64,000 bases of DNA from positions 3,519-67,518 of the forward strand of contig JAZNGG010000047.1 of assembly GCA_045576355.1 (NCBI GenBank). The letters run 5' to 3'. The first letter of the stretch is position 1. Every line of letters begins with the position of its first letter. The translations under genes and the position numbers were made by a program. This DNA is from Bacteroidales bacterium. Its GTDB lineage: Bacteria > Bacteroidota > Bacteroidia > Bacteroidales > UBA3663. Below the pieces are notes generated by a model. That model saw only the letters and a program-made list of their open reading frames with translations, was not told the origin of the DNA and ran no database searches. Of the stretch, positions 453-42,918 are shown piece by piece.

Positions 453-546
453 TTTGTTATTTGGTGTCCGATAAACCGCAAATATGCAAGCTATGTAATT
501 TTATTCGGTTATCGGCTATTAAAATTCAAGTATTATATGACCAGTT

Positions 547-634
547 TGCATGACGCCGCCGTGTAACGTGCATGATGCCGCCGTATAACATCATACGACT
601 GCATGAATAAATGTGTAAGGCGCCGTCATCCTTA
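547..634 (-). repeat. 22-bp tandem repeat: about 2 good copies plus 2 decayed copies, reverse complement of the 23859-24100 unit
   Basis: tgcatgacgccgccgtgtaacg / tgcatgatgccgccgtataaca, then decayed units. The unit taacgtgcatgatgccgccgta matches the reverse complement of cacggcggcgtcatgcacgtta at 20/22 positions. Confidence 0.85.
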
Positions 635-4951: not shown

Positions 4952-6148
4952 TTAATATTTTTTAGCCAATCCCCCTTCTGCAGTCTCTTTGTATAGACTA
5001 GGGAGATCATGTCCTGTCTCTTTCATGACCTCAATGACTTTGTCAAAGCATATCCGGTGTGTACCGTCGCCATAGCAAGCATAACTGCAACAATCCAATG
5101 CTCGTGCAGCTGCATACGCATTACGTTCGATGCAAGGTATCTGTACCAAGCCACACACAGGGTCGCAGGTCAATCCTAAATGGTGTTCTAATCCCATCTC
5201 TGCTGCATATTCTATTTGGCTGACCGTTCCTCCATAGATTTGTGCTGCCGCCGCTGCCGCCATAGCGCATGCTACACCGACCTCTCCCTGACATCCTACC
5301 TCTGCACCACTGATAGAAGCATTGGTCTTTACCACTGTGCCGAATAGACCGGCAGTGGCCAGCGCTCTATGGATGCGATGGTCTGAGAAGTGATGTTGTT
5401 TCCAAAGATAGTATAACACACCCGGTAATATGCCACAACTGCCACAGGTCGGTGCAGTTACGATGATGCCTCCGGCAGCATTCTCTTCAGCTGTGGCTAG
5501 TGCATATGCGTAAATTAATCCTTTAGAACGCATGCTCCCTTGATAGCTATGAGCTTTAGTCAGGTATTCACAAGCTTTTCGGCGCAGTCCTAATCCCCCA
5601 TGAAGCACCCCTTCGGCATCTAATCCACGTTCGACTGCAGCAACCATTGTTTTCCAAATTTCGTCTAGAAAATCCCAAATCTCTTTTCCTTCAGCTTGCT
5701 CGACATATTCCCAAAAACTATATCCTGTCCGGTGGCACCACTCTTGTATTTGAGAGATGCTTTGCATGTCATACACATCTTGGTGCTGCATCGGTGTATC
5801 TTCTCCTTCAGAGAGCGCTCCCCCTCCGATGCTATATACTATCCAATCTTTTTGCACATTATCATTACAATCCAATGCTTCAAACTTCATCCCGTTGGGG
5901 TGGAAAGGAAGAAATGTTTCCGGATACCAGCAAATTTCTGTCGGAGCGATGGGTGAGAGGACATTGAGTATTGCGACATCTGTAAGGTGTCCTTTCCCGG
6001 TTGCCGCCAGACTGCCATAAAGAGAGACTCTATAGTGAGACGTATTGGGTGTTTTTTCTGCAAAATGTAGGGCAGCTTTGCGGGGACCCATCGTGTGACT
6101 GGAGGAGGGACCTTGTCCAATATTATATAATTCGCGAATTGATTCCAT
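4952..6148 (-). CDS. sdaA: L-serine ammonia-lyase (iron-sulfur-dependent L-serine dehydratase, single-chain)
   Basis: 398 aa. N-terminal GQGPSSSHTMGP motif, a Cys-rich Fe-S region (APTCGSCG ... CIERNA), and full-length colinearity with SdaA. Confidence 0.9.
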   Translation of the reverse strand: MESIRELYNIGQGPSSSHTMGPRKAALHFAEKTPNTSHYRVSLYGSLAATGKGHLTDVAILNVLSPIAPTEICWYPETFLPFHPNGMKFEALDCNDNVQKDWIVYSIGGGALSEGEDTPMQHQDVYDMQSISQIQEWCHRTGYSFWEYVEQAEGKEIWDFLDEIWKTMVAAVERGLDAEGVLHGGLGLRRKACEYLTKAHSYQGSMRSKGLIYAYALATAEENAAGGIIVTAPTCGSCGILPGVLYYLWKQHHFSDHRIHRALATAGLFGTVVKTNASISGAEVGCQGEVGVACAMAAAAAAQIYGGTVSQIEYAAEMGLEHHLGLTCDPVCGLVQIPCIERNAYAAARALDCCSYACYGDGTHRICFDKVIEVMKETGHDLPSLYKETAEGGLAKKY

Positions 6149-19892: not shown

Positions 19893-22800
19893 ATGAAAGC
19901 GTTGAAATATCTGTTTTGTATCCTCTTGTGTGCAGTGTCATCCTTGGGCTATGCCAAAATTGAGGGAAGTCTTGATCCCGATTGTGTCGTTGCGGAGTGG
20001 AGCAACTCTTCCACTTATCCCAAAGTCATAGATATCAATTTTAGTGATGAGATGTGGCCCGGAGAGACTTGGGTGAAAGAGACCGGACGGGATTGTCCCG
20101 AGTGGAGTGATAGTTGCTATGTCAATGCCATCATAGATGTGCCTGCCAATGGTACGGGAGATGTGAAATATCCTGTCCTTTTTCACAATTGTGTCTTTGC
20201 CAATAAAAATTCCTATCAAGGCTATGCAGGTGCTACTGCTGCATTCTGCCGACAATATTATTTAGGAGAGACCGCGTCAGGAAATAGTGCCACTACCTAT
20301 AATAACTGGACTGTCGAGCATCACAAAAAATATATTGAGGATCACATCAGATATAATGACAAGGGAACACCGATCTATGGTGAAGCCGGATTCGTACAGT
20401 TCTGTCGTAGTGCTGCTTTTGTCGATATGGCTACTCGCAAAAAAGTGAGTGTACATGGATGGATGGAGATTGATCATATTCCTTATGTGGAGCGCATACA
20501 GTGGGCTTGGTCTTCTACCTCATGGGGGCGAGGCATCAAGTGTGATGTGAAAATTGGTGATGGAGCGTGGAAGCCCCTCGTCTGGATGGGTTCAGATAAG
20601 CATAAAGCCGGTTATACGGTCTTTAGTGATCAAGGTTATTTCATGGAGAACGTGATTGATGCTCATGATGTCTCCATTCGTTGGAGGATTTGGGATGGTG
20701 ATAACGTTACCACTTTAGTCCAAACCAAAGAGGATGGATCATCCGCTTTTGGCATTCCGATTGACTCCACAAAACAACAGCAGGCTGCACGTGTGCATAA
20801 GATTCAGATTTTTGGAGATATGATCACGGCTGAGCAGGCAGACTATGCTCGTCAGAATCCCGTTGGAAACGTGGGAAAATTGTCTGATATAGATAATGGT
20901 AGCGACGCTAAGGAGGATTATGCTCCTGATGCCAATGCCCCGGTCGTAGTCTATACTGTGGCTAAAGATGGAAGTGGAGATTTTCTAAAGATACAGGATG
21001 CCATTGATGCTGTCCAAAATGGTCAGCGTGGCATTATTTATATTCGTCCGGGCATTTATGAAGAAAACGTTTATGCCGGTAGGAGTGAAAACAAGAATAA
21101 GTTTATCAGCTTGATCGGAGAAGACAAGGAGACCACTATTTTGACCTCTTCGGTAGATCGTGGAGCCAATAATCCTAATAATAAGTATTATGATTGTGCA
21201 GCGCTCAACGTTTATACTTCGCGTTTCTATGCAGAAAATCTGACGATTCGTAATACAGCCGGCAACGTTGGCCAAGCTGAAGCATTGTTTACCAATGGAG
21301 ATGCTCATCTCTTTAATAATTGCATTCTTTCCGGATATCAGGATACTTATAAGGCAAACTCCGGAGGCCGTGGTTATTTCACCCGTTGTCTCATTGAGGG
21401 TGCGACCGACTTTATCTATGATGGCGGTTTGGAGTGGTTTGAAGATTGTGAAATCCGCTGTGTGCAGGGTGGAGGATATATCACGGCTGCTGCAGATGCA
21501 AGTCTGACCTTGACACAGGCTTTACATCCCAATCTCAGTGTCTCTCCGTTTTATGCCGGTCTTTTCTTCCGCAACTGCAATGTAAAAGCCGAAGAGGGTG
21601 TGAAAAATGGAGCATATTATTTGGGACGTCCCTGGAAGGAGGGTTGTGGCACGATGTTTATTAACTGTAAATTAGGTGCTCATATCAATGCCAAAGGATG
21701 GAAGGAATGGGATGGCACTGAAAACAAGTGCTCTTACTTCGAGTATGGGAGCAAGGATCCTTCCGGTGCTCTGATCAATACGGCTTCGCGTGTCTCCTGG
21801 AGTCATCAGGCAACAGCCATAGAGGTGGAGGAGTATATGAATCCCGAGTTCTTGTTTGCCAAGTTCTCAGATGTGCCGTTCGATTATAATTATATCTTAA
21901 AGGGGGCTGCTGCTCCGATGAATTTCTCCCTCACTTCCTCCGGATTCTCATGGGAAAGTGATGATATGGCGGTGGCATATATCATCTATAAGGATGGACA
22001 ATTTGCGGCGATTACGACTTCTCCGGCTTATAGTAAGGAGACGACAGATGAATCTGTGTATAGTGTGAGAAGTATCTCTCGTCATGGTGTTACCTCTCCG
22101 GCAGTTGTTGCCAAAGAGCCGACGCAGTTGCTCGCATTCCCTACAGCCGAGGGTTTTGGTAAGTTTACGACCGGAGGTCGTGGCGGCAAGGTGGTGACAG
22201 TTACTTCGCTGACCAATGATGGCGTAGGGTCTTTGAGATGGGCTTTTTCACAATATCCCGGTGAGCCGATCACGATCGTTTTTGCAGTAAGTGGAGAAAT
22301 ACGACTCGCAGAGGAGTTAAACATCAAACGCAGTGACTGGACATTGGCTGGTCAGACTGCCCCTGGAGAGGGTATTGTTATTACCCATAACAAAGTCAAT
22401 GTGGGTGGTTCGCAAAATTTTATTGTGCGCAATGTCCGTTTCCGCGCAGGACAGCGCAATACGAACGATGAAATTTTGGCAACCAATGCTTTAGGATCAG
22501 AAAACTGTTCCAATTATATATTTGACCATTGCTCTTTCGGATGGTCGGTTGAGGAGAATATGAATACTGCCGATAGTCATTTTCTCACGGTGCAATACAG
22601 CATAGTGCATGAGGGGCTGTATAATAGCGGCCACTCTAAGGGCGCCCGTGGCTATGGATGTCAATGGGGTGGTTCGCCGGCAACCTATCATCATAATCTC
22701 CTGGCTCATAATAAGTCTCGCAGTCCCCGTTTCAATGGTGCTCGTGGAGAGGATTATGTGGTATTTATGGAGTATATCAATAATGTGAATTATAATTTCG

Positions 22801-23804
22801 GTGATGCCGGTGGGTGTTATGGCGGGGAGAATACAGCCGCTATCACCGAATATAATGGTCTGAACTCTGCACATGAGTGTAATTTTATCAATAATTACTA
22901 CAAGCCGGGTCCGGCTTCTTCATCGGCATCTTCGGTTAAATTTGTCAATTCCAGTTATGCTCGTAGCGGAGCTACTTCATGGGCACCTGCAAAGTGGTAT
23001 CTGAGCGGTAATGTTATCGAGGGTAATTCTTCGGCAAGTGCTAATAACTGGAATGCCATGCGGGCAGAGACCTATTCTTTGGCGCAGATACGCAGTGATG
23101 AGCGTATTGTGACGGCTACACCCTATTATAAATATACTGTGATGGGTGGGGTCGGAAAATATATGCCGGAGCAATATATGATGTATGACTATGAGACTGC
23201 CGAACAAGCTTATGCGACAGTGGTGACAAAAGCCGGAACGGTGAATAGTGATTTAATCGAACGCCGTATCTTGAAAGAGGCACGTGAGGGTGGTGCAACT
23301 ACCTATGGAGGCTCTTCGATCGGTAAAGGAAAGGGGATCATTGATACAGAAAATGACTGCGAAGGTTTTTACGCCTATACGACAGATTATGTGGTTCCCA
23401 TCGATAGCGATAAAGATGGTATGCCGGACTCATGGGAGACAGAGAATGGATTGAATCCTATGCTACAAGACAACAATACTCTGAATGCTGATGGATATAC
23501 GGCTCTGGAGGTTTATCTGAACGGATTGATGGGAGAGAAGATGGATCGTAATTTCACCACCGGACTTCGCCATGAGTCCATGGAGCAATTGCAGGTCACT
23601 TATCATCCGGAGAGCCGTATGGTCTATTTCTCCCCTTCGGCTATAGGAGGAACTCTCCATGTATATTCGACCGCAGGTCTTTTGCTTCAAGTCCGGCAGA
23701 TTGATTCTGTTGCCCTCTCTCTTGCGGATTGTCCATCCGGATATGCTTTATTGCAGATCTCAGGTCGTGGATTCTGTCCGAGGTTGTTGAAGGTAGCGTT
23801 ATGA
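19893..23804 (+). CDS. Multidomain pectin enzyme: unknown N-terminal domain, CE8 pectin methylesterase, PL1 pectate lyase, Ca-binding-type repeat and T9SS sorting domain
   Basis: 1303 aa. CE8 landmarks from about 20943: GDFLKIQDAIDAV, QAEAL, GYQDTY, DFIYDGG, YLGRPW. PL1 landmarks from about 22128: AFPTAEGFGKFTTGGRGG, AGQTAPG, YIFDHCSFGWSVEE, HNKSRSPRF. Also DSDKDGMPDSWETENGLNP, and the tail LHVYSTAGLLL... Confidence 0.85.
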   Translation: MKALKYLFCILLCAVSSLGYAKIEGSLDPDCVVAEWSNSSTYPKVIDINFSDEMWPGETWVKETGRDCPEWSDSCYVNAIIDVPANGTGDVKYPVLFHNCVFANKNSYQGYAGATAAFCRQYYLGETASGNSATTYNNWTVEHHKKYIEDHIRYNDKGTPIYGEAGFVQFCRSAAFVDMATRKKVSVHGWMEIDHIPYVERIQWAWSSTSWGRGIKCDVKIGDGAWKPLVWMGSDKHKAGYTVFSDQGYFMENVIDAHDVSIRWRIWDGDNVTTLVQTKEDGSSAFGIPIDSTKQQQAARVHKIQIFGDMITAEQADYARQNPVGNVGKLSDIDNGSDAKEDYAPDANAPVVVYTVAKDGSGDFLKIQDAIDAVQNGQRGIIYIRPGIYEENVYAGRSENKNKFISLIGEDKETTILTSSVDRGANNPNNKYYDCAALNVYTSRFYAENLTIRNTAGNVGQAEALFTNGDAHLFNNCILSGYQDTYKANSGGRGYFTRCLIEGATDFIYDGGLEWFEDCEIRCVQGGGYITAAADASLTLTQALHPNLSVSPFYAGLFFRNCNVKAEEGVKNGAYYLGRPWKEGCGTMFINCKLGAHINAKGWKEWDGTENKCSYFEYGSKDPSGALINTASRVSWSHQATAIEVEEYMNPEFLFAKFSDVPFDYNYILKGAAAPMNFSLTSSGFSWESDDMAVAYIIYKDGQFAAITTSPAYSKETTDESVYSVRSISRHGVTSPAVVAKEPTQLLAFPTAEGFGKFTTGGRGGKVVTVTSLTNDGVGSLRWAFSQYPGEPITIVFAVSGEIRLAEELNIKRSDWTLAGQTAPGEGIVITHNKVNVGGSQNFIVRNVRFRAGQRNTNDEILATNALGSENCSNYIFDHCSFGWSVEENMNTADSHFLTVQYSIVHEGLYNSGHSKGARGYGCQWGGSPATYHHNLLAHNKSRSPRFNGARGEDYVVFMEYINNVNYNFGDAGGCYGGENTAAITEYNGLNSAHECNFINNYYKPGPASSSASSVKFVNSSYARSGATSWAPAKWYLSGNVIEGNSSASANNWNAMRAETYSLAQIRSDERIVTATPYYKYTVMGGVGKYMPEQYMMYDYETAEQAYATVVTKAGTVNSDLIERRILKEAREGGATTYGGSSIGKGKGIIDTENDCEGFYAYTTDYVVPIDSDKDGMPDSWETENGLNPMLQDNNTLNADGYTALEVYLNGLMGEKMDRNFTTGLRHESMEQLQVTYHPESRMVYFSPSAIGGTLHVYSTAGLLLQVRQIDSVALSLADCPSGYALLQISGRGFCPRLLKVAL

Positions 23805-23829: not shown

Positions 23830-23858
23830 GGCTGCATTTAGGTGCGGCCATTTTTTTT
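23830..23858 (+). terminator. Rho-independent terminator
   Basis: ggctgc (23830-23835) pairs with gcggcc (23844-23849), followed by an 8-T run (23851-23858). Confidence 0.75.
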
Positions 23859-24100
23859 CGTCCGCCGGCGATTCATTTTACACGGCGGCGTCATGCACGT
23901 TACACGGCGGCGTCATGCACGTTACACGGCGGCGTCATGCACGTTACACGGCGGCGTCATGCACGTTACGCGGCGGCGTCATGCACGTTACACGGCGGCG
24001 TCATGCACGTTACACGGCGGCGTCATGCACGTTACGCGGCGGCGTCATGCACGTTACACGGCAGCGTCATGCATGTTACACGGCGGCGTCATGCAAATAA
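23859..24100 (+). repeat. 22-bp perfect-period tandem array, about 10-11 copies (unit cacggcggcgtcatgcacgtta)
   Basis: Units begin at 23881 and recur every 22 bp to 24100. Variants are cgcggcgg... (units 5 and 8) and decayed end units. A degenerate unit sits at 23859-23880. Confidence 0.95.
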
Positions 24101-24228
24101 TGCCTTTAGCGACATTATATTTCTTCATTTGGTCAAGTGGACTTTGCAAAGGTGTTTGCTTTTTTTAGAAAAGAAACAGATTTAGAGAGAGAATCGAATT
24201 TGCTTGTTCGCGACATTGTTTTTAAAGT

Positions 24229-24236
24229 TACCTTTG
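24229..24236 (+). promoter_or_regulatory. -7 box TAccTTTG for the transporter gene
   Basis: tacctttg lies 98 bp upstream of ATG 24334. Confidence 0.55.
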
Positions 24237-24333
24237 CGCGTCTGTTTTGTCCGAATCGGATTATATCGGACCAAATGACGGCGTTTATTGTGTTTGTCAT
24301 ATATATATTATATAAGGTATAGATGTTAATGTT

Positions 24334-26016
24334 ATGGATTGGTTAGTCAGTCTTTTTGCCGGTTCCGGAGTGGCGCACTCTGTGTTTTTAGTGGCGTTGA
24401 CCATTGCCATAGGATTGTTTTTCAGCAGGTTTAAGATCTGTGGAGTCTCCTTAGGAGTTACATGGATATTGTTTGCCGGCATCTTTGCCGGGCATTTCGG
24501 ATTGGAGTTGGATCCGGTCACCTCTCACTTTGTCAAAGAGTTCGGTCTCATCCTCTTCATCTATTCCATCGGCATCCAGGTCGGACCGGGATTCTTCTCC
24601 TCGTTTCGCAAAGGGGGTGTCACGCTCAATATGCTTGCCTCCGGTGTCGTTCTGCTGGGGTGTACGGTGGCCTATGCGATCCATCTGGTGACCGGAGAAA
24701 ACCTTTTTGCCATGATCGGCGTCCTTTATGGCGCTGTGACCAATACCCCCGGTCTGGGTGCGGCACAGCAGACATTTTCCGATATGCACGGCGGTGAGAA
24801 TAACTCGCTCTTTGCTCAAGGCTACGCTGTGGCATATCCGTTGGGTGTGGTGGGCATCATACTCTCCATCATTTTGATCAAAATGATATTCCGCATCAGG
24901 TTTGATAAAGAGCAGTCGCTCTTTCAGGCTGCTGCCCGTCTCAATAGTAAAGCCCTTGAGGCTGTCACCATCAAGATCGAGAATGACGCGGTGGTCGGTA
25001 AGACTGTGGCTGAAATTCAGGAGATCTCCGGACGCCAGTGTGTGATGTCCCGTATCTTGCACCGCGAAACGAGTGACATCGAACTGGTAGTAAGCGATAC
25101 AAAGTTGCAGAAGGGTGATCGACTCTTTTTGGTCGCTTCGCCTGCCGATGCCTCTGCGCTTAGTGTCCTCCTCGGCCGACGTATAGAGGGGATGATGACC
25201 GAGCAGTGGAATGCCCTCGATCATAACGACCTGATCAGTGAGCGCATGGTGGTGACCAATCCCAAACTCAATGGCAAACGTTTGGGTGACCTGGCATTGC
25301 GCAAGACGTTTAATGTCAATATCACCCGAGTGAAGCGTTCGGGGGTAGATATCATCGCTCATCCCGGGTTGCTCTTGCAGCTTGGTGACCGTCTGGTCGT
25401 GGTGGGTAAAGCTGAGAGCATCCGTAAGATCCAGCCCATGCTCGGAGACTCTGTCAAGAAACTTGATGAGCCTAATCTGATGGCGATATTCCTGGGCATC
25501 TCCTTGGGTGTCATATTAGGATCTATGCCGATCCTTTTCCCCGGTATGCCCGTGCCGGTGAAACTGGGACTTGCCGGAGGACCTCTGATCATCTCCATAT
25601 TGGTCTCCAAGTTCGGACCGCAACTCAAATTGGTCACTTATACCACCTCTTCGGCCAATCTTCTGATGCGACAGGTCGGCATCTGTATGTTTATGGCCGC
25701 TGTCGGATTGGGTGCCGGCAAAGGTTTTGTCGATACGGTCCTGCAAGGGGGATACTGGTGGGTCCTTTATGGTGTATTGATCACTATGATTCCCTGCTTG
25801 GTGGTGGGTGTCATTGCCCGACGTTTTTTCCGTCTCAGTTATTTCACGATTGCCGGCATGATTTCCGGCTCGATGACCGATCCACCGGCTTTGGCTTATA
25901 GCAATAGCATCTGTGGCAATGATCAGGCTTCTGTCGCATATTCCACCGTCTATCCGCTGACCATGTTCCTGCGTGTCTTGACTGCTCAGGTGATGGTACT
26001 TATGGGAGGATATTGA
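24334..26016 (+). CDS. AAE-family (YidE/YbjL-like, aspartate:alanine exchanger family) transporter with two central RCK_C/TrkA-C domains
   Basis: 560 aa. Two hydrophobic halves flank two soluble repeats (VTIKIENDAVVGKTVAEI... and VVTNPKLNGKRLGDLALR...). Confidence 0.8.
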   Translation: MDWLVSLFAGSGVAHSVFLVALTIAIGLFFSRFKICGVSLGVTWILFAGIFAGHFGLELDPVTSHFVKEFGLILFIYSIGIQVGPGFFSSFRKGGVTLNMLASGVVLLGCTVAYAIHLVTGENLFAMIGVLYGAVTNTPGLGAAQQTFSDMHGGENNSLFAQGYAVAYPLGVVGIILSIILIKMIFRIRFDKEQSLFQAAARLNSKALEAVTIKIENDAVVGKTVAEIQEISGRQCVMSRILHRETSDIELVVSDTKLQKGDRLFLVASPADASALSVLLGRRIEGMMTEQWNALDHNDLISERMVVTNPKLNGKRLGDLALRKTFNVNITRVKRSGVDIIAHPGLLLQLGDRLVVVGKAESIRKIQPMLGDSVKKLDEPNLMAIFLGISLGVILGSMPILFPGMPVPVKLGLAGGPLIISILVSKFGPQLKLVTYTTSSANLLMRQVGICMFMAAVGLGAGKGFVDTVLQGGYWWVLYGVLITMIPCLVVGVIARRFFRLSYFTIAGMISGSMTDPPALAYSNSICGNDQASVAYSTVYPLTMFLRVLTAQVMVLMGGY

Positions 26017-33286: not shown

Positions 33287-33440
33287 AACGAGCGTAGCCT
33301 CGTTCCTTCACGAGTGTAGCCTCGTTGCTTCATGAGGGTAGCCTTATTGCTTCACGAGCGTAGCCTCGTTGCCTCACGAGGGTAGCCTCGTTGCTTCACG
33401 AGCGTAGCCCCGTTGCTTCACGTGGTTGACGCGTAGTGTC
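33287..33440 (+). repeat. 22-bp tandem array, 6 good copies plus decayed copies (unit cacgagcgtagcctcgttgctt)
   Basis: Units start at 33287, 33309, 33331, 33353, 33375 and 33397, then degenerate. Each unit contains the small dyad acgag-N6-ctcgt. Confidence 0.9.
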
Positions 33441-33585: not shown

Positions 33586-34872
33586 TTACTCAAAGCCTTC
33601 ATCCCTTACCAACCATTCCCAAATCGGGATAACCTGTATTGTATATTCCTGTTCTTCAATGATTTCTGTTTCTTGATCTGTGATAAGAAATATATTATTA
33701 CATTTTGTAGCCTTGGCTCCTGCAATACATCCTTTGATTTCCCGTTTCCTTGTTTTTGAATTGGTGATATCATAACTTACTTGATATACTGCAAGAGTTT
33801 TGTTTCCATCGCATACCACAAAATCTGCTTCAGCACTTCTGCCTTGGTAGTAGTATATGTCTTTTTCCGTCCCGGCTTTCCTGCGCAATAATTCCAAATA
33901 TACTATTGTCTCTAATCTCCAACCTAAATTTTCTCCCGAAAAGGCATTTTCTCGTTTGTCCATAAATGAGACATCTATAGCATATGATTTTTCGCCTCTT
34001 GTTCGTATTGTACTTTTTGTCGAATATTTTTTTATGGTAGAGATCAAATATGTTTGATTCAAATATAGGAGGAAATTGCTAAGGGTTTGTTCGCTTTTTA
34101 TATTTATCGTATTTTGAAGTGTCTCCTTAACTATAATTGTAGGAGTTTCATTGAGAATATGATGTGCAAGTCTTTTCAAAGCATCAATATTGCGTATATT
34201 ATATCGTTTCTTGATGTCTTGTGTTATGATGTTGTCTATTAAAGTACTTATATATTCTTTCGGTTTCTCTTCGCCTGATATAAGTTCCGGAAAACCTCCT
34301 TGATGAAAATATTCTTCGTAGGCTTTGGATATTAACCCTCTGTTTTTTGTTGTCAATCGAGTATAATCCAATCCTTTTATCATGCACCAGTCTTTAAATG
34401 AAAAAGGAAATAACTCGATCTTATGATGTCTTCCTGTGAGATGAGATGCTAATTCGACACTCAAAAGTTTTGCATTACTACCGGTGATTAGTACATGAAT
34501 CCGTTGTCTAAGTAAACGGTTTACAAATAATGGCCATCCGTCTATATTTTGTATTTCGTCTAAAAACAGATAATCAAACTTGCCATATATTTTGTATAAA
34601 ATCTGAAGAACTTTATCCAAATCTTGAGTCCCTAACTCCTCTAAACGCTCGTCATCAAAGTTTGCATATGCAAATTGTACTTTGGCTTTTTTCAGAGCAT
34701 TAAAACAAAGAGTGGACTTCCCGCTTCGACGCACACCAATTACTACCTGGGCAAGTTTGCTTTTCAGATTTATAAAATCTTCTTCCGGTCGGTGTATCAA
34801 TACGTCTTTCCCTAAAGCTTTCAGTTCATCTTGCTGCTCGAGTAATACTTTCTCTATTTCTGTATGTTTCAT
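33586..34872 (-). CDS. AAA ATPase (AAA_14-type) with a DUF4143-like C-terminal PD-(D/E)xK-like region
   Basis: 428 aa. Walker A GVRRSGKST, Walker B YLFLDEIQ. The C-terminal AEADFVVCDGNKTLAVYQVSYD resembles a restriction-endonuclease-fold motif. The gene is AT-rich. Confidence 0.8.
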   Translation of the reverse strand: MKHTEIEKVLLEQQDELKALGKDVLIHRPEEDFINLKSKLAQVVIGVRRSGKSTLCFNALKKAKVQFAYANFDDERLEELGTQDLDKVLQILYKIYGKFDYLFLDEIQNIDGWPLFVNRLLRQRIHVLITGSNAKLLSVELASHLTGRHHKIELFPFSFKDWCMIKGLDYTRLTTKNRGLISKAYEEYFHQGGFPELISGEEKPKEYISTLIDNIITQDIKKRYNIRNIDALKRLAHHILNETPTIIVKETLQNTINIKSEQTLSNFLLYLNQTYLISTIKKYSTKSTIRTRGEKSYAIDVSFMDKRENAFSGENLGWRLETIVYLELLRRKAGTEKDIYYYQGRSAEADFVVCDGNKTLAVYQVSYDITNSKTRKREIKGCIAGAKATKCNNIFLITDQETEIIEEQEYTIQVIPIWEWLVRDEGFE

Positions 34873-34898
34873 GACGTTTTACAGTTTTATTTGTGCTG

Positions 34899-34906
34899 CA
34901 AATATA
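34899..34906 (-). promoter_or_regulatory. -7 box TAtaTTTG (minus strand) for the ATPase gene
   Basis: Plus-strand caaatata at 34899-34906, 27 bp upstream of the ATG (34872). Confidence 0.55.
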
Positions 34907-34918
34907 CAAATATTTTTT

Positions 34919-35087
34919 TCTAATTGGTATAAATTACACATTTTATGTGTTTCTAATTGGGATAAATTACATGTTTTGCCCTTTCGTAGTTGGGATAAAT
35001 TACATGTTTTGTCCTTTCCTAATTGGGATAAATTACATGTTTTGTTATTTCTTAGTTTGGATAAATTACATGTTTTACCCCTTCCCG
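34919..35087. repeat. Iteron-like array: 5 copies of a 22-bp core (ttgggataaattacatgttttg) separated by 11-12-bp pyrimidine-rich spacers (period 33 bp)
   Basis: Cores start at 34924, 34957, 34990, 35023 and 35057. The three central cores are identical and the outer two are diverged. The core contains the palindrome acatgt. Confidence 0.9.
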
Positions 35088-42695: not shown

Positions 42696-42827
42696 ACACA
42701 GCGTGCTGTGTCCCCTGACGGAGCACGCTGTGTCAGCCTTCATAGCGCACTGCGTTGCCCTACACAGCGTGCTGTGTTTGCTTGTTCAGCGCACTGCGTT
42801 CAGAGTGCTGCGCCCTACTCTGGCGAT
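42696..42827 (+). repeat. Degenerate 22-bp-period array, about 6 units (e.g. acacagcgtgctgtgtcccctg)
   Basis: Units start at 42696, 42718, 42740, 42762, 42784 and 42806. The cores cacagcgtgctgtg and agcgcactgcgt alternate. An atggca microrepeat follows (42828-42860). Confidence 0.8.
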
Positions 42828-42918
42828 GGCTATGGCAGATGGCAATGGCAATGGCTTGGAACTAGGATTAACAAACGAATTTTTGAGAGAAAAATGTTCG
42901 TGAGAGGAGCTATTTTTG

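Follow-up and report, generated by a model that had tools for sequence, protein, structure and literature searches.

Dispersed intergenic repeats of modular build, in which a central unit is reiterated in strain-variable number, are represented by BOX in Streptococcus pneumoniae and by the mycobacterial interspersed repetitive unit-variable-number tandem repeats (MIRU-VNTR) of Mycobacterium tuberculosis. The boxB unit measures 45 nt and MIRU units 46–101 nt, MIRUs lie within operons and are translatable, and to our knowledge no dedicated enzyme acts on either system. Plasmid iterons (R6K, RK2) are direct repeats with ~22-bp spacing that form a single cluster by a rep gene or origin and serve one Rep protein. 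BrickBuilt of Porphyromonas gingivalis is a minisatellite MITE (miniature inverted-repeat transposable element) built from 23-nt units with a leader, a tail, and terminal repeats like those of insertion sequences (IS); it is strictly intergenic, varies in copy number between strains, has terminators flanking 10 of its 19 copies, and its terminal repeats were matched by its authors to ISPg1-type IS5 elements (Klein et al. 2015, PMC4596501). Beyond BrickBuilt, no publication that deals with 22-bp arrays in members of the Prevotellaceae or Bacteroidales came to light. Here we analyzed a 22-bp tandem array, called the window array, in a 64-kb stretch of DNA (the window; C47:3519-67518) from the 2.8-Mb metagenome-assembled genome (MAG; 63 contigs, 43% GC) of an uncultured Prevotellaceae/Bacteroidales bacterium of herbivore guts, whose nearest relatives are only 77% identical in the transporter encoded beside the array. 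The window array appears to be a solo arm, in amplified form, of a species-specific intergenic repeat (family A) dispersed over the genome. We consider it rather likely, if by no means certain, that the array is a non-coding, selfish or neutral minisatellite derived from a mobile element and expanded by slippage, like BrickBuilt, BOX, and MIRU, and it probably has no dedicated function.

An earlier note, made from the letters of the window, had described about 10–11 head-to-tail copies past a terminator. Tandem Repeats Finder (TRF) bore this out, calling at 23878-24095 a 22-bp unit that is present 9.9 times (score 408, with 96% matches and 0% indels), and a pattern search found ten in-register CACGGCGGCGTCATGCACGTTA units at 23881-24100 (220 bp), where shuffled sequences led us to expect none. 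The array starts 20 bp past the T-run of the terminator, whose hairpin itself lies at 23830-23849, and its 3′ end lies 239 bp before the Asp-Al_Ex/TrkA_C (AAE) transporter gene. The features of the locus are as follows.

19893-23804: pectinesterase gene upstream of the array (Pfam PF01095).
23830-23857, plus strand: intrinsic terminator of the pectinesterase gene, an 8-bp stem GGCTGCAT/GTGCGGCC followed by a T-run (terminator scan).
23858-23877, plus strand: short junction TCGTCCGCCGGCGATTCATT between terminator and array (hairpin 23858-23871 in the terminator scan).
23878-24100, plus strand: family A tandem array of 10 units, consensus CACGGCGGCGTCATGCACGTTA (TRF and pattern search).
24079-24100, plus strand: last unit, in the variant form CACGGCGGCGTCAT-GCAAATAA that serves family-wide as the 3′ boundary (GCAAAY ends in 37 of 57 family A arrays).
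24264-24278, plus strand: TATCGGACCAAATGA, which weakly resembles the IS4-type terminal repeat …ATCGGACACCAATAA, 165 bp past the array and of doubtful membership.

The units are contiguous, the period being equal to the unit length, and this absence of spacers, which the earlier note had also seen, led us to reject CRISPR. CGC is found in units 5 and 8, unit 9 differs by two transitions, and the ending of unit 10 is GCAAATAA; the pattern CAC-CAC-CGC occurs twice (units 3-5 and 6-8) as a 66-bp higher-order duplication. The three forward frames were correctly described as open and as creating false open reading frames (ORFs): they contain 0 stops, with 6-7 stops in each reverse frame. A coding repeat was rejected because 22 cannot be divided by 3 and Pfam gave no match for the 108-aa pseudo-ORF. 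BLAST against the genome found no second copy of the junction at 23858-23877, which may be a decayed inverted unit or a leader remnant; its likeness to the leader motif GACGGCGCCG…ATTCAGG is weak. Both flanks of the array were likewise unique in the genome by BLAST, and positions 24090-24340 had no significant similarity to the tails of other copies.

TRF returned 596 rows for the whole genome, of which 127 had period 22, followed by period 8 (73) and period 16 (63). The 127 rows merge into ~120 arrays of 10.5 kb in total, i.e., 43 arrays per Mb. Clustering of the 22-mer consensus units at a threshold of 16 of 22 matches gave five families.

Family B, 48 TRF rows: AACGAG-CGTAGC-CTCGTT hairpin plus spacer.
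Family A, 39 TRF rows: unit ACACGGCGGCGTCATGCACGTT.
Family D, 10 TRF rows: unit AATATTGTGGAGCATTATCCAA.
Family C, 9 TRF rows: CACAGCGYGCTGTG palindrome plus spacer.
Family E, 7 TRF rows: GAAATTCGAATTTC palindrome plus TACGCGAT.

Chained core matches extended family A, to which the window array belongs, to 57 arrays (loci) with 223 units. The ending GCAAAY is never internal, and 37 of the 57 arrays end in a unit …GTCAT-GCAAAY; because this 3′ boundary is common to arrays at unrelated loci, family A was dispersed as a defined segment. An inverted unit lies within 110 bp upstream of 32 of the 57 arrays, a conserved turn CATTTATTCAGGC is present in 19, and a conserved tail (…TCATATAAGACTTGAA…) in 12. 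Most short copies are palindromic hairpin elements composed of inverted units, the turn CATTTATTCAGGC, and direct units, and a complete one forms a long hairpin with a folding energy of -49 kcal/mol (z=-8.5). Eighteen of the 57 arrays, among them the window array and most arrays of at least 5 units, are solo, without inverted unit, turn, or tail. The window array is hence a member of a dispersed family, as had been claimed, whereas its status as the founder is not demonstrable. Within the unit, ACACGGC, CA, and T are near-invariant, and the other positions vary in 20-40% of units. CpG-type transitions dominate the changes (116 of 402; CACGTT→CATGTT/CACATT, GGCGGC→GGCAGC), and the CpG inside ACACGGC is almost never altered, a pattern that hints at cytosine methylation and deamination with position-specific constraint. 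The dyad symmetry of the unit is weak.

Some family A tails (~110 bp) end in TTTCCCGGACACCAATAA, the terminal inverted repeat (TIR) of an IS4-family (DUF4372 + DDE) IS. In inverted pairs, this 18-nt motif bounds several MITE families of the genome; at least four families, of ~145, 270, and 480 bp, carry the terminal repeat TTATTGNTGTCCG(G/C)TAAA (C12:34225-34494, C1:25389-25534, C5:64907-65404), and the ~480-bp MITEs contain family D arrays. The IS4-type repeat (TTATTGNTGTCCGGTAAA) is widespread in the order (at least 120 loci), with matches that include the cultured relatives Palleniella muris, Duncaniella muris, Prevotella ihumii, and Bacteroides ihuae; in the last of these, it is the end of an IS with a DUF4372 + DDE_Tnp_1 transposase. 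In our genome, fragments of the same transposase, each with the repeat ahead of it, lie at contig ends, and a distant full copy is also present. The repeat is found ~124-260 bp from many contig ends; the start of the window's own contig (C47:122-139) is among the ends at which the IS is collapsed. One IS copy (on C4) lies ~30 bp after a terminator hairpin, and another (on C32) ~55 bp from a family B array. Since 43 repeat ends were counted in this genome versus 0-3 in each of 30 relatives, a recent burst of the IS4-family element, with its copies collapsed at contig ends, is indicated. The earlier note had set its own reading against the unit being part of a known mobile element; what we found lies between the two, with family A units forming palindromic hairpin elements and some composites ending in the IS4-family TIR.

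Copy number was followed in contigs of other metagenomes. Those from four metagenomes of four studies enter the window array from both unique flanks and stop ~30-55 bp inside it. As both flank junctions recur in this way, the array is no artefact of a single assembly. Logan contigs in every case broke off ~31 bp inside it, so that a single short-read assembly is the basis of the copy number of 10. Whole-unit changes were observed in a sister array of the window.

33288-33422, plus strand: family B array of an ACGAG-CGTAGC-CTCGT hairpin unit with a 6-nt spacer, 6.1 copies, directly 3′ of a terminator.

A 2.7-kb contig (X1) skips exactly 66 bp of it (3 units; 33315→33382), and another (X4) skips 88 bp (4 units; 33305→33394). 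The junction overlap in X1 is 17 nt, shorter than the assembler's word, so that the junction words, which are absent from the reference, must come from reads. The sister array changes in copy number by whole units between strains, which is the VNTR behavior that had been foreseen. In several other arrays, higher-order periods of 44 or 66 bp outscore 22, and we read such patterns as marks of slippage or unequal exchange. An assembly artefact or collapsed repeat would accord with the many arrays that lie at contig ends (C11, C19, C20, C21, C32, C38, C48, C60) and with the breaking of short-read contigs within the window array. However, both flank-array junctions were reproduced in four independent metagenomes and the internal variants keep a consistent register, with only the exact copy number uncertain, which makes an artefact hardly credible at all.

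A crude ORF model placed 116 of the 120 arrays in intergenic DNA. Convergent-gene spacers account for 42 of the 96 array-bearing spacers (44% vs 20% expected by length, p=1e-7), a quarter of all convergent-gene spacers in the genome hold a 22-bp array, and divergent spacers are depleted. The adjacency to terminators that had been suspected from the window held genome-wide: a terminator-like hairpin with a T-run points at the array from within 25 bp in 19 of 120 cases vs 6.3±2.6 for random intergenic placements (~3-fold), and a terminator-like hairpin lies within 60 bp of 33 arrays vs 12.3±3.7. The orientation of the arrays relative to neighboring or upstream genes is mixed, with no fixed link.

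The enrichment beside terminators and between convergent genes would suit structural elements of 3′ untranslated regions resembling repetitive extragenic palindromes (REP), whose hairpins, upon read-through, protect mRNA 3′ ends or strengthen convergent termination. The units of families B, C, and E are hairpins, the window array, taken as antisense (minus-strand) RNA, has a better fold than shuffles (z=-2.5), and a 52-nt array-only contig of a metatranscriptome exceeds the neighboring genes in depth. However, the arrays stand after the terminator T-run, not before it, and the window array folds no better than shuffles as sense RNA (z=+0.39) or as single-stranded DNA (z=-0.46). The RNA contig lacks a unique flank and comes from a shallow run, the sole metatranscriptome with the species, in which no contig crosses a flank-array junction; its source may be any of the 57 loci or DNA carry-over. 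The mixed orientation of family A relative to the upstream gene also speaks against a role at mRNA 3′ ends, and a known RNA family was rejected, Rfam giving only two chance-level matches (E ~0.6). We regard this explanation as very unlikely. Situated between a terminator and the promoter of the AAE transporter, the window array is most likely not transcribed to any extent.

In a circular, both-strand, ungapped comparison of the five units, no cross-family likeness exceeded the composition-matched null, and the single-linkage merge of families at 15 of 22 matches is accounted for by chance edges. Common descent of the five families as the source of their common period was therefore rejected: the 22-bp period is not attributable to any detectable common descent, and the register across the five families is a real regularity that is unexplained. 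Two-unit patterns of families A and B, which occur 37 and 146 times in this genome, were absent from the 30 relatives (18 of the same genus) and from viral and JGI metagenome contigs, and gave nothing beyond chance matches in high-GC taxa among 185,000 species genomes; the 2 + 5 matches in species genomes and metagenomes are chance, in high-GC organisms. A phage origin was rejected because the units are absent from viral contigs. As the units are absent from all tested relatives, their sequences are not conserved.

The period recurs elsewhere in the order. TRF rows in other Bacteroidales were distributed as follows.

Transporter loci of ~60 other Bacteroidales, 683 kb: period 22, 8 rows (5 arrays); period 20, 3; period 23, 0.
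Sixteen species of the same genus, 300 kb: period 22, 6 rows.
Genome G008, 200 kb: period 22, 6 rows, among many periods of 21-27.
Genome G016, 200 kb: period 22, 1 row.
Other families of the order, 299 kb: period 22, 1 row.
Loci centered on the IS4-type terminal repeat, 764 kb (sample biased by design): period 22, 19 rows; period 20, 1; period 23, 7.

Pooled over ~2.4 Mb, periods 20, 21, 22, 23, and 24 gave 7, 37, 41, 9, and 14 rows, respectively, which makes 22 the commonest period in other Bacteroidales as well, and the other genomes have 3-25 period-22 arrays per Mb vs 43 here. Perfect dyad arms of at least 6 were found in 22% of the period-22 units of other Bacteroidales (null, 4%) vs 5% of those with other periods (null, 3%). 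The preference for palindrome-cored 22-bp arrays thus extends beyond this genome and is not universal; the absence of arrays from relatives, which the earlier note had raised, applies to the unit sequences and not to the period.

Such regularity could stem from phased protein-binding sites, iteron- or nucleoid-protein-like, with one dyad site per unit on about the same face of the helix; a host or transposase-derived protein would polymerize on them and might insulate convergent transcription units or organize DNA. Five families without common sequence that are all exactly 22 bp with ~0% indels, units built of a 10-18-bp dyad core plus spacer, the enriched dyad arms in other Bacteroidales, and the uneven conservation inside the family A unit are consistent with this, and the core of family E, GAAATTCGAATTTC, is a perfect 14-bp palindrome without loop, typical of dimer sites. 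At least five unlike sequences would, however, call for several proteins or for one binder specific to structure, and we found no candidate. Species-specific units in strain-variable number are unusual in functional operator arrays, family A has weak dyad symmetry and an orientation independent of neighboring genes, and no rep gene or origin context exists. The iteron-like character proposed in the earlier note does not fit 120 chromosomal loci with at least five unlike units, and iterons or a replication origin were rejected on these grounds and on the neighbors of the window array, the pectinesterase and AAE transporter genes. We judge phased binding sites to be quite unlikely.

The constant 22 bp is addressed by one further explanation, a dedicated ruler tied to the IS4-family (DUF4372-DDE) transposase or its MITEs, e.g., through aberrant end processing or gap repair, by which the period would be set mechanically, not by descent or selection. 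In the repeat-centered loci of other species, period 22 is the commonest (19 rows vs 1 at 20 and 7 at 23), and some arrays at these loci lie directly against the repeat, the units being 100% identical in some of them (L117, L162, L126, L177). This genome has both a repeat burst and an array burst, and its family D arrays lie inside the ~480-bp repeat-bounded elements. Yet the repeat-centered sample carries a bias by design, most arrays of the present genome lack a nearby repeat end, the distance from array to repeat end is variable, and G008 is rich in minisatellites with only 3 repeat ends. We know of no IS4-family mechanism that yields 22-bp duplications, and find a transposase-linked ruler improbable enough to give it little weight. 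It is unlikely, if somewhat less so, that the arrays represent an undescribed Bacteroidales minisatellite class in which palindrome-cored units are fixed at 22 bp, whatever their sequence, by a ruler-like process; a structure-specific DNA-binding protein or the DUF4372-DDE transposase with its MITEs may be the ruler. If so, this genome, with five families, ~120 arrays, and an IS burst, would be the extreme case.

Under the reading that we favor, a mobile-element-derived minisatellite, a few family A units would have been seeded just downstream of the pectinesterase terminator, either by a MITE-like composite that transposed there or through recombination with another copy. The flanks of the seed would have been lost or never transferred, and replication slippage or unequal recombination would then have enlarged it to ~10 units. 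The array would be located where it is because terminator-distal spacers, above all those between 3′ ends, tolerate insertions; the associated IS/MITEs possibly prefer terminator-distal sites too. Several points weigh against this origin. The window array has no recognizable leader, tail, or terminal repeat, and its descent from a mobile element is inferred from its relatives within the genome; among the family A loci, only 3-12 of 57 retain a tail or repeat end, and a strict repeat match lies within 350 bp of only 13 of the 120 arrays, ~2-fold over expectation. Neither target-site duplications nor an empty site turned up, and the locus is not syntenic: in the nearest relatives by AAE transporter (77% identity), another gene lies upstream. 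A REP-associated tyrosine transposase (RAYT) is absent (PF01797 gave 0 matches in the six-frame genome, control genomes being positive), so that a RAYT-driven REPIN was rejected for want of a Y1 transposase. No enzyme that moves the palindromic elements was identified. Slippage, moreover, keeps the period within a family but fails to explain 22 bp in five unlike families or why 22 is favored in other Bacteroidales; and the uneven conservation in the family A unit (ACACGGC, CA, T, and CpG) could reflect protein recognition.

Besides the sister array at 33288-33422, two of the further 22-bp arrays reported by the earlier note were located in the window.

456-634, minus strand: second family A element (TRF, pattern search, tail comparison).
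42696-42810, plus strand: family C array of degenerate CACAGCGYGCTGTG palindromes every 22 bp, 3′ of a terminator.

The sister array is a true 22-bp array, the family A element has 2 copies (547-589), and the family C array is weak, with no TRF call, palindromic cores at 42699, 42743, 42765, and 42787, and an autocorrelation peak of 0.51 at lag 22. Read along the minus strand, the family A element consists of decayed units (590-634), the 2 units, the conserved tail GCAAACTGGTCATATAATACTTGAA…, and a TIR-like end GTTATTTGGTGTCCGATAA (456-474), which abuts the T-run of the upstream terminator (410-452). Unit sequences had been said to differ between loci; this is true of 33288-33422, whereas 547-589 repeats, on the minus strand, the family A unit of the window array. 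All four 22-bp arrays of the window stand 3′ of a terminator, as read from the sequence. A supposed 22-bp core in an array at 34919-35087 was not recovered, as TRF and autocorrelation gave period 33 at 34917-35085. Located just upstream of where a minus-strand gene starts, this 33-bp × 4.9 array (TTTCTAATTGGGATAAATTACATGTTTTATCCA) may represent an operator or promoter region in reiterated form.

Strain variation was also seen at 34235-34990, a region that takes in part of the 33-bp array and where X1 swaps 754 bp for 63 other letters and X4 lacks 664 bp. A TGGCAA/TGGCTA 6/13-bp microsatellite at 42821-42856 abuts the family C array and is shorter in other strains (13 bp lost in X1, 6 bp in X4); CCATAG/GCCATC tracts resembling it flank several family A arrays (C27:15326, C29:3786). 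In the 5′ leader of the AAE transporter, between the -7 box and ATG, an (AT)n tract TATATATAT at 24298 is longer by AT in X6 and X9 and by ATAT in X1; this dinucleotide microsatellite could modulate transporter expression. In many other Bacteroidales (e.g., L013, L015, L034-L036, ~5910-6000), AT-rich 7/21-bp tandem repeats, e.g., AGTAATT×3, directly precede the AAE transporter. The rows with periods of 8 and 16 bp form a second array class in the genome, exemplified by GAAAACTG-type tracts beside C27:15326. The end of another multi-copy element (…GTCTAGTGAAATCAGGAAAAGACA) directly abuts several family B arrays (C11:268, C48:219, C48:18883, C20:164, C40:37050), and ~12 family B arrays (e.g., C20:39250, C5:22831, C8:64080, C57:50444) have a conserved module 40-60 bp ahead, …CCTTAAACCATAAATAGCGAGGATAGATC-NNN-TCTATCTTCGCTAT plus a T-run, i.e., a promoter-less hairpin-terminator unit.

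In annotation, such arrays yield false ORFs, like the 108-aa one here, and break metagenome assemblies; many contigs of the MAG end in arrays. Their whole-unit length changes could serve as VNTR markers for strain typing of this uncultured herbivore-gut Prevotellaceae species. The occupation of a quarter of the convergent spacers shows the extent to which a selfish or neutral repeat, tied to an IS4-family burst, colonizes terminator-distal DNA. If a true mechanism or protein lies behind the common 22-bp period, it would be a new principle for the formation of bacterial minisatellites.

Compared with known systems, the arrays share with BrickBuilt their occurrence in Bacteroidales, spacer-less tandem units of 22-23 nt at many intergenic sites, often beside Rho-independent terminators, restriction to a species, strain-variable copy number (here for the sister array of family B), the breaking of assemblies, and conserved and variable halves distinguishable within the unit; in both, some copies have a leader, tail, and IS-like TIRs and others consist of repeats only. 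They differ in that the BrickBuilt unit AGAYCATARTATCCTCTCRTRTG is unrelated to CACGGCGGCGTCATGCACGTTA and resembles none of the five families, the period is 23 vs 22, and 19 copies of one family compare with ~120 arrays in five families. Furthermore, the leader here is made of inverted units, which yields a palindromic element, and the terminal repeat matches an IS4-family (DUF4372-DDE) IS, that of BrickBuilt an IS5. A leader or tail is found at 12-32 of the 57 family A loci, and the window array has no leader, tail, or terminal repeat; with neither these nor homology, the locus falls outside BrickBuilt in the strict sense. BOX and MIRU have longer units that are not palindromic 22-mers, occur in other phyla, and have no sequence in common with the arrays. 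REP, bacterial interspersed mosaic elements (BIME), and REPINs of Proteobacteria resemble them in having short palindromic units dispersed in 3′ intergenic regions, lineage specificity, and inverted doublets that form long hairpins, like the palindromic element of family A (z=-8.5). In contrast to those systems, this genome has no Y1/RAYT gene, the long arrays are head-to-tail rather than alternating, only the short family A elements being inverted doublets, and family A units are only weakly palindromic. With iterons, the arrays share direct repeats, ~22-bp spacing, and the absence of spacers, but they occupy 120 chromosomal loci, comprise at least five sequences, and have no rep context. The window array is an element of the BrickBuilt pattern with one odd regularity, a 22-bp period across unrelated palindromic units.

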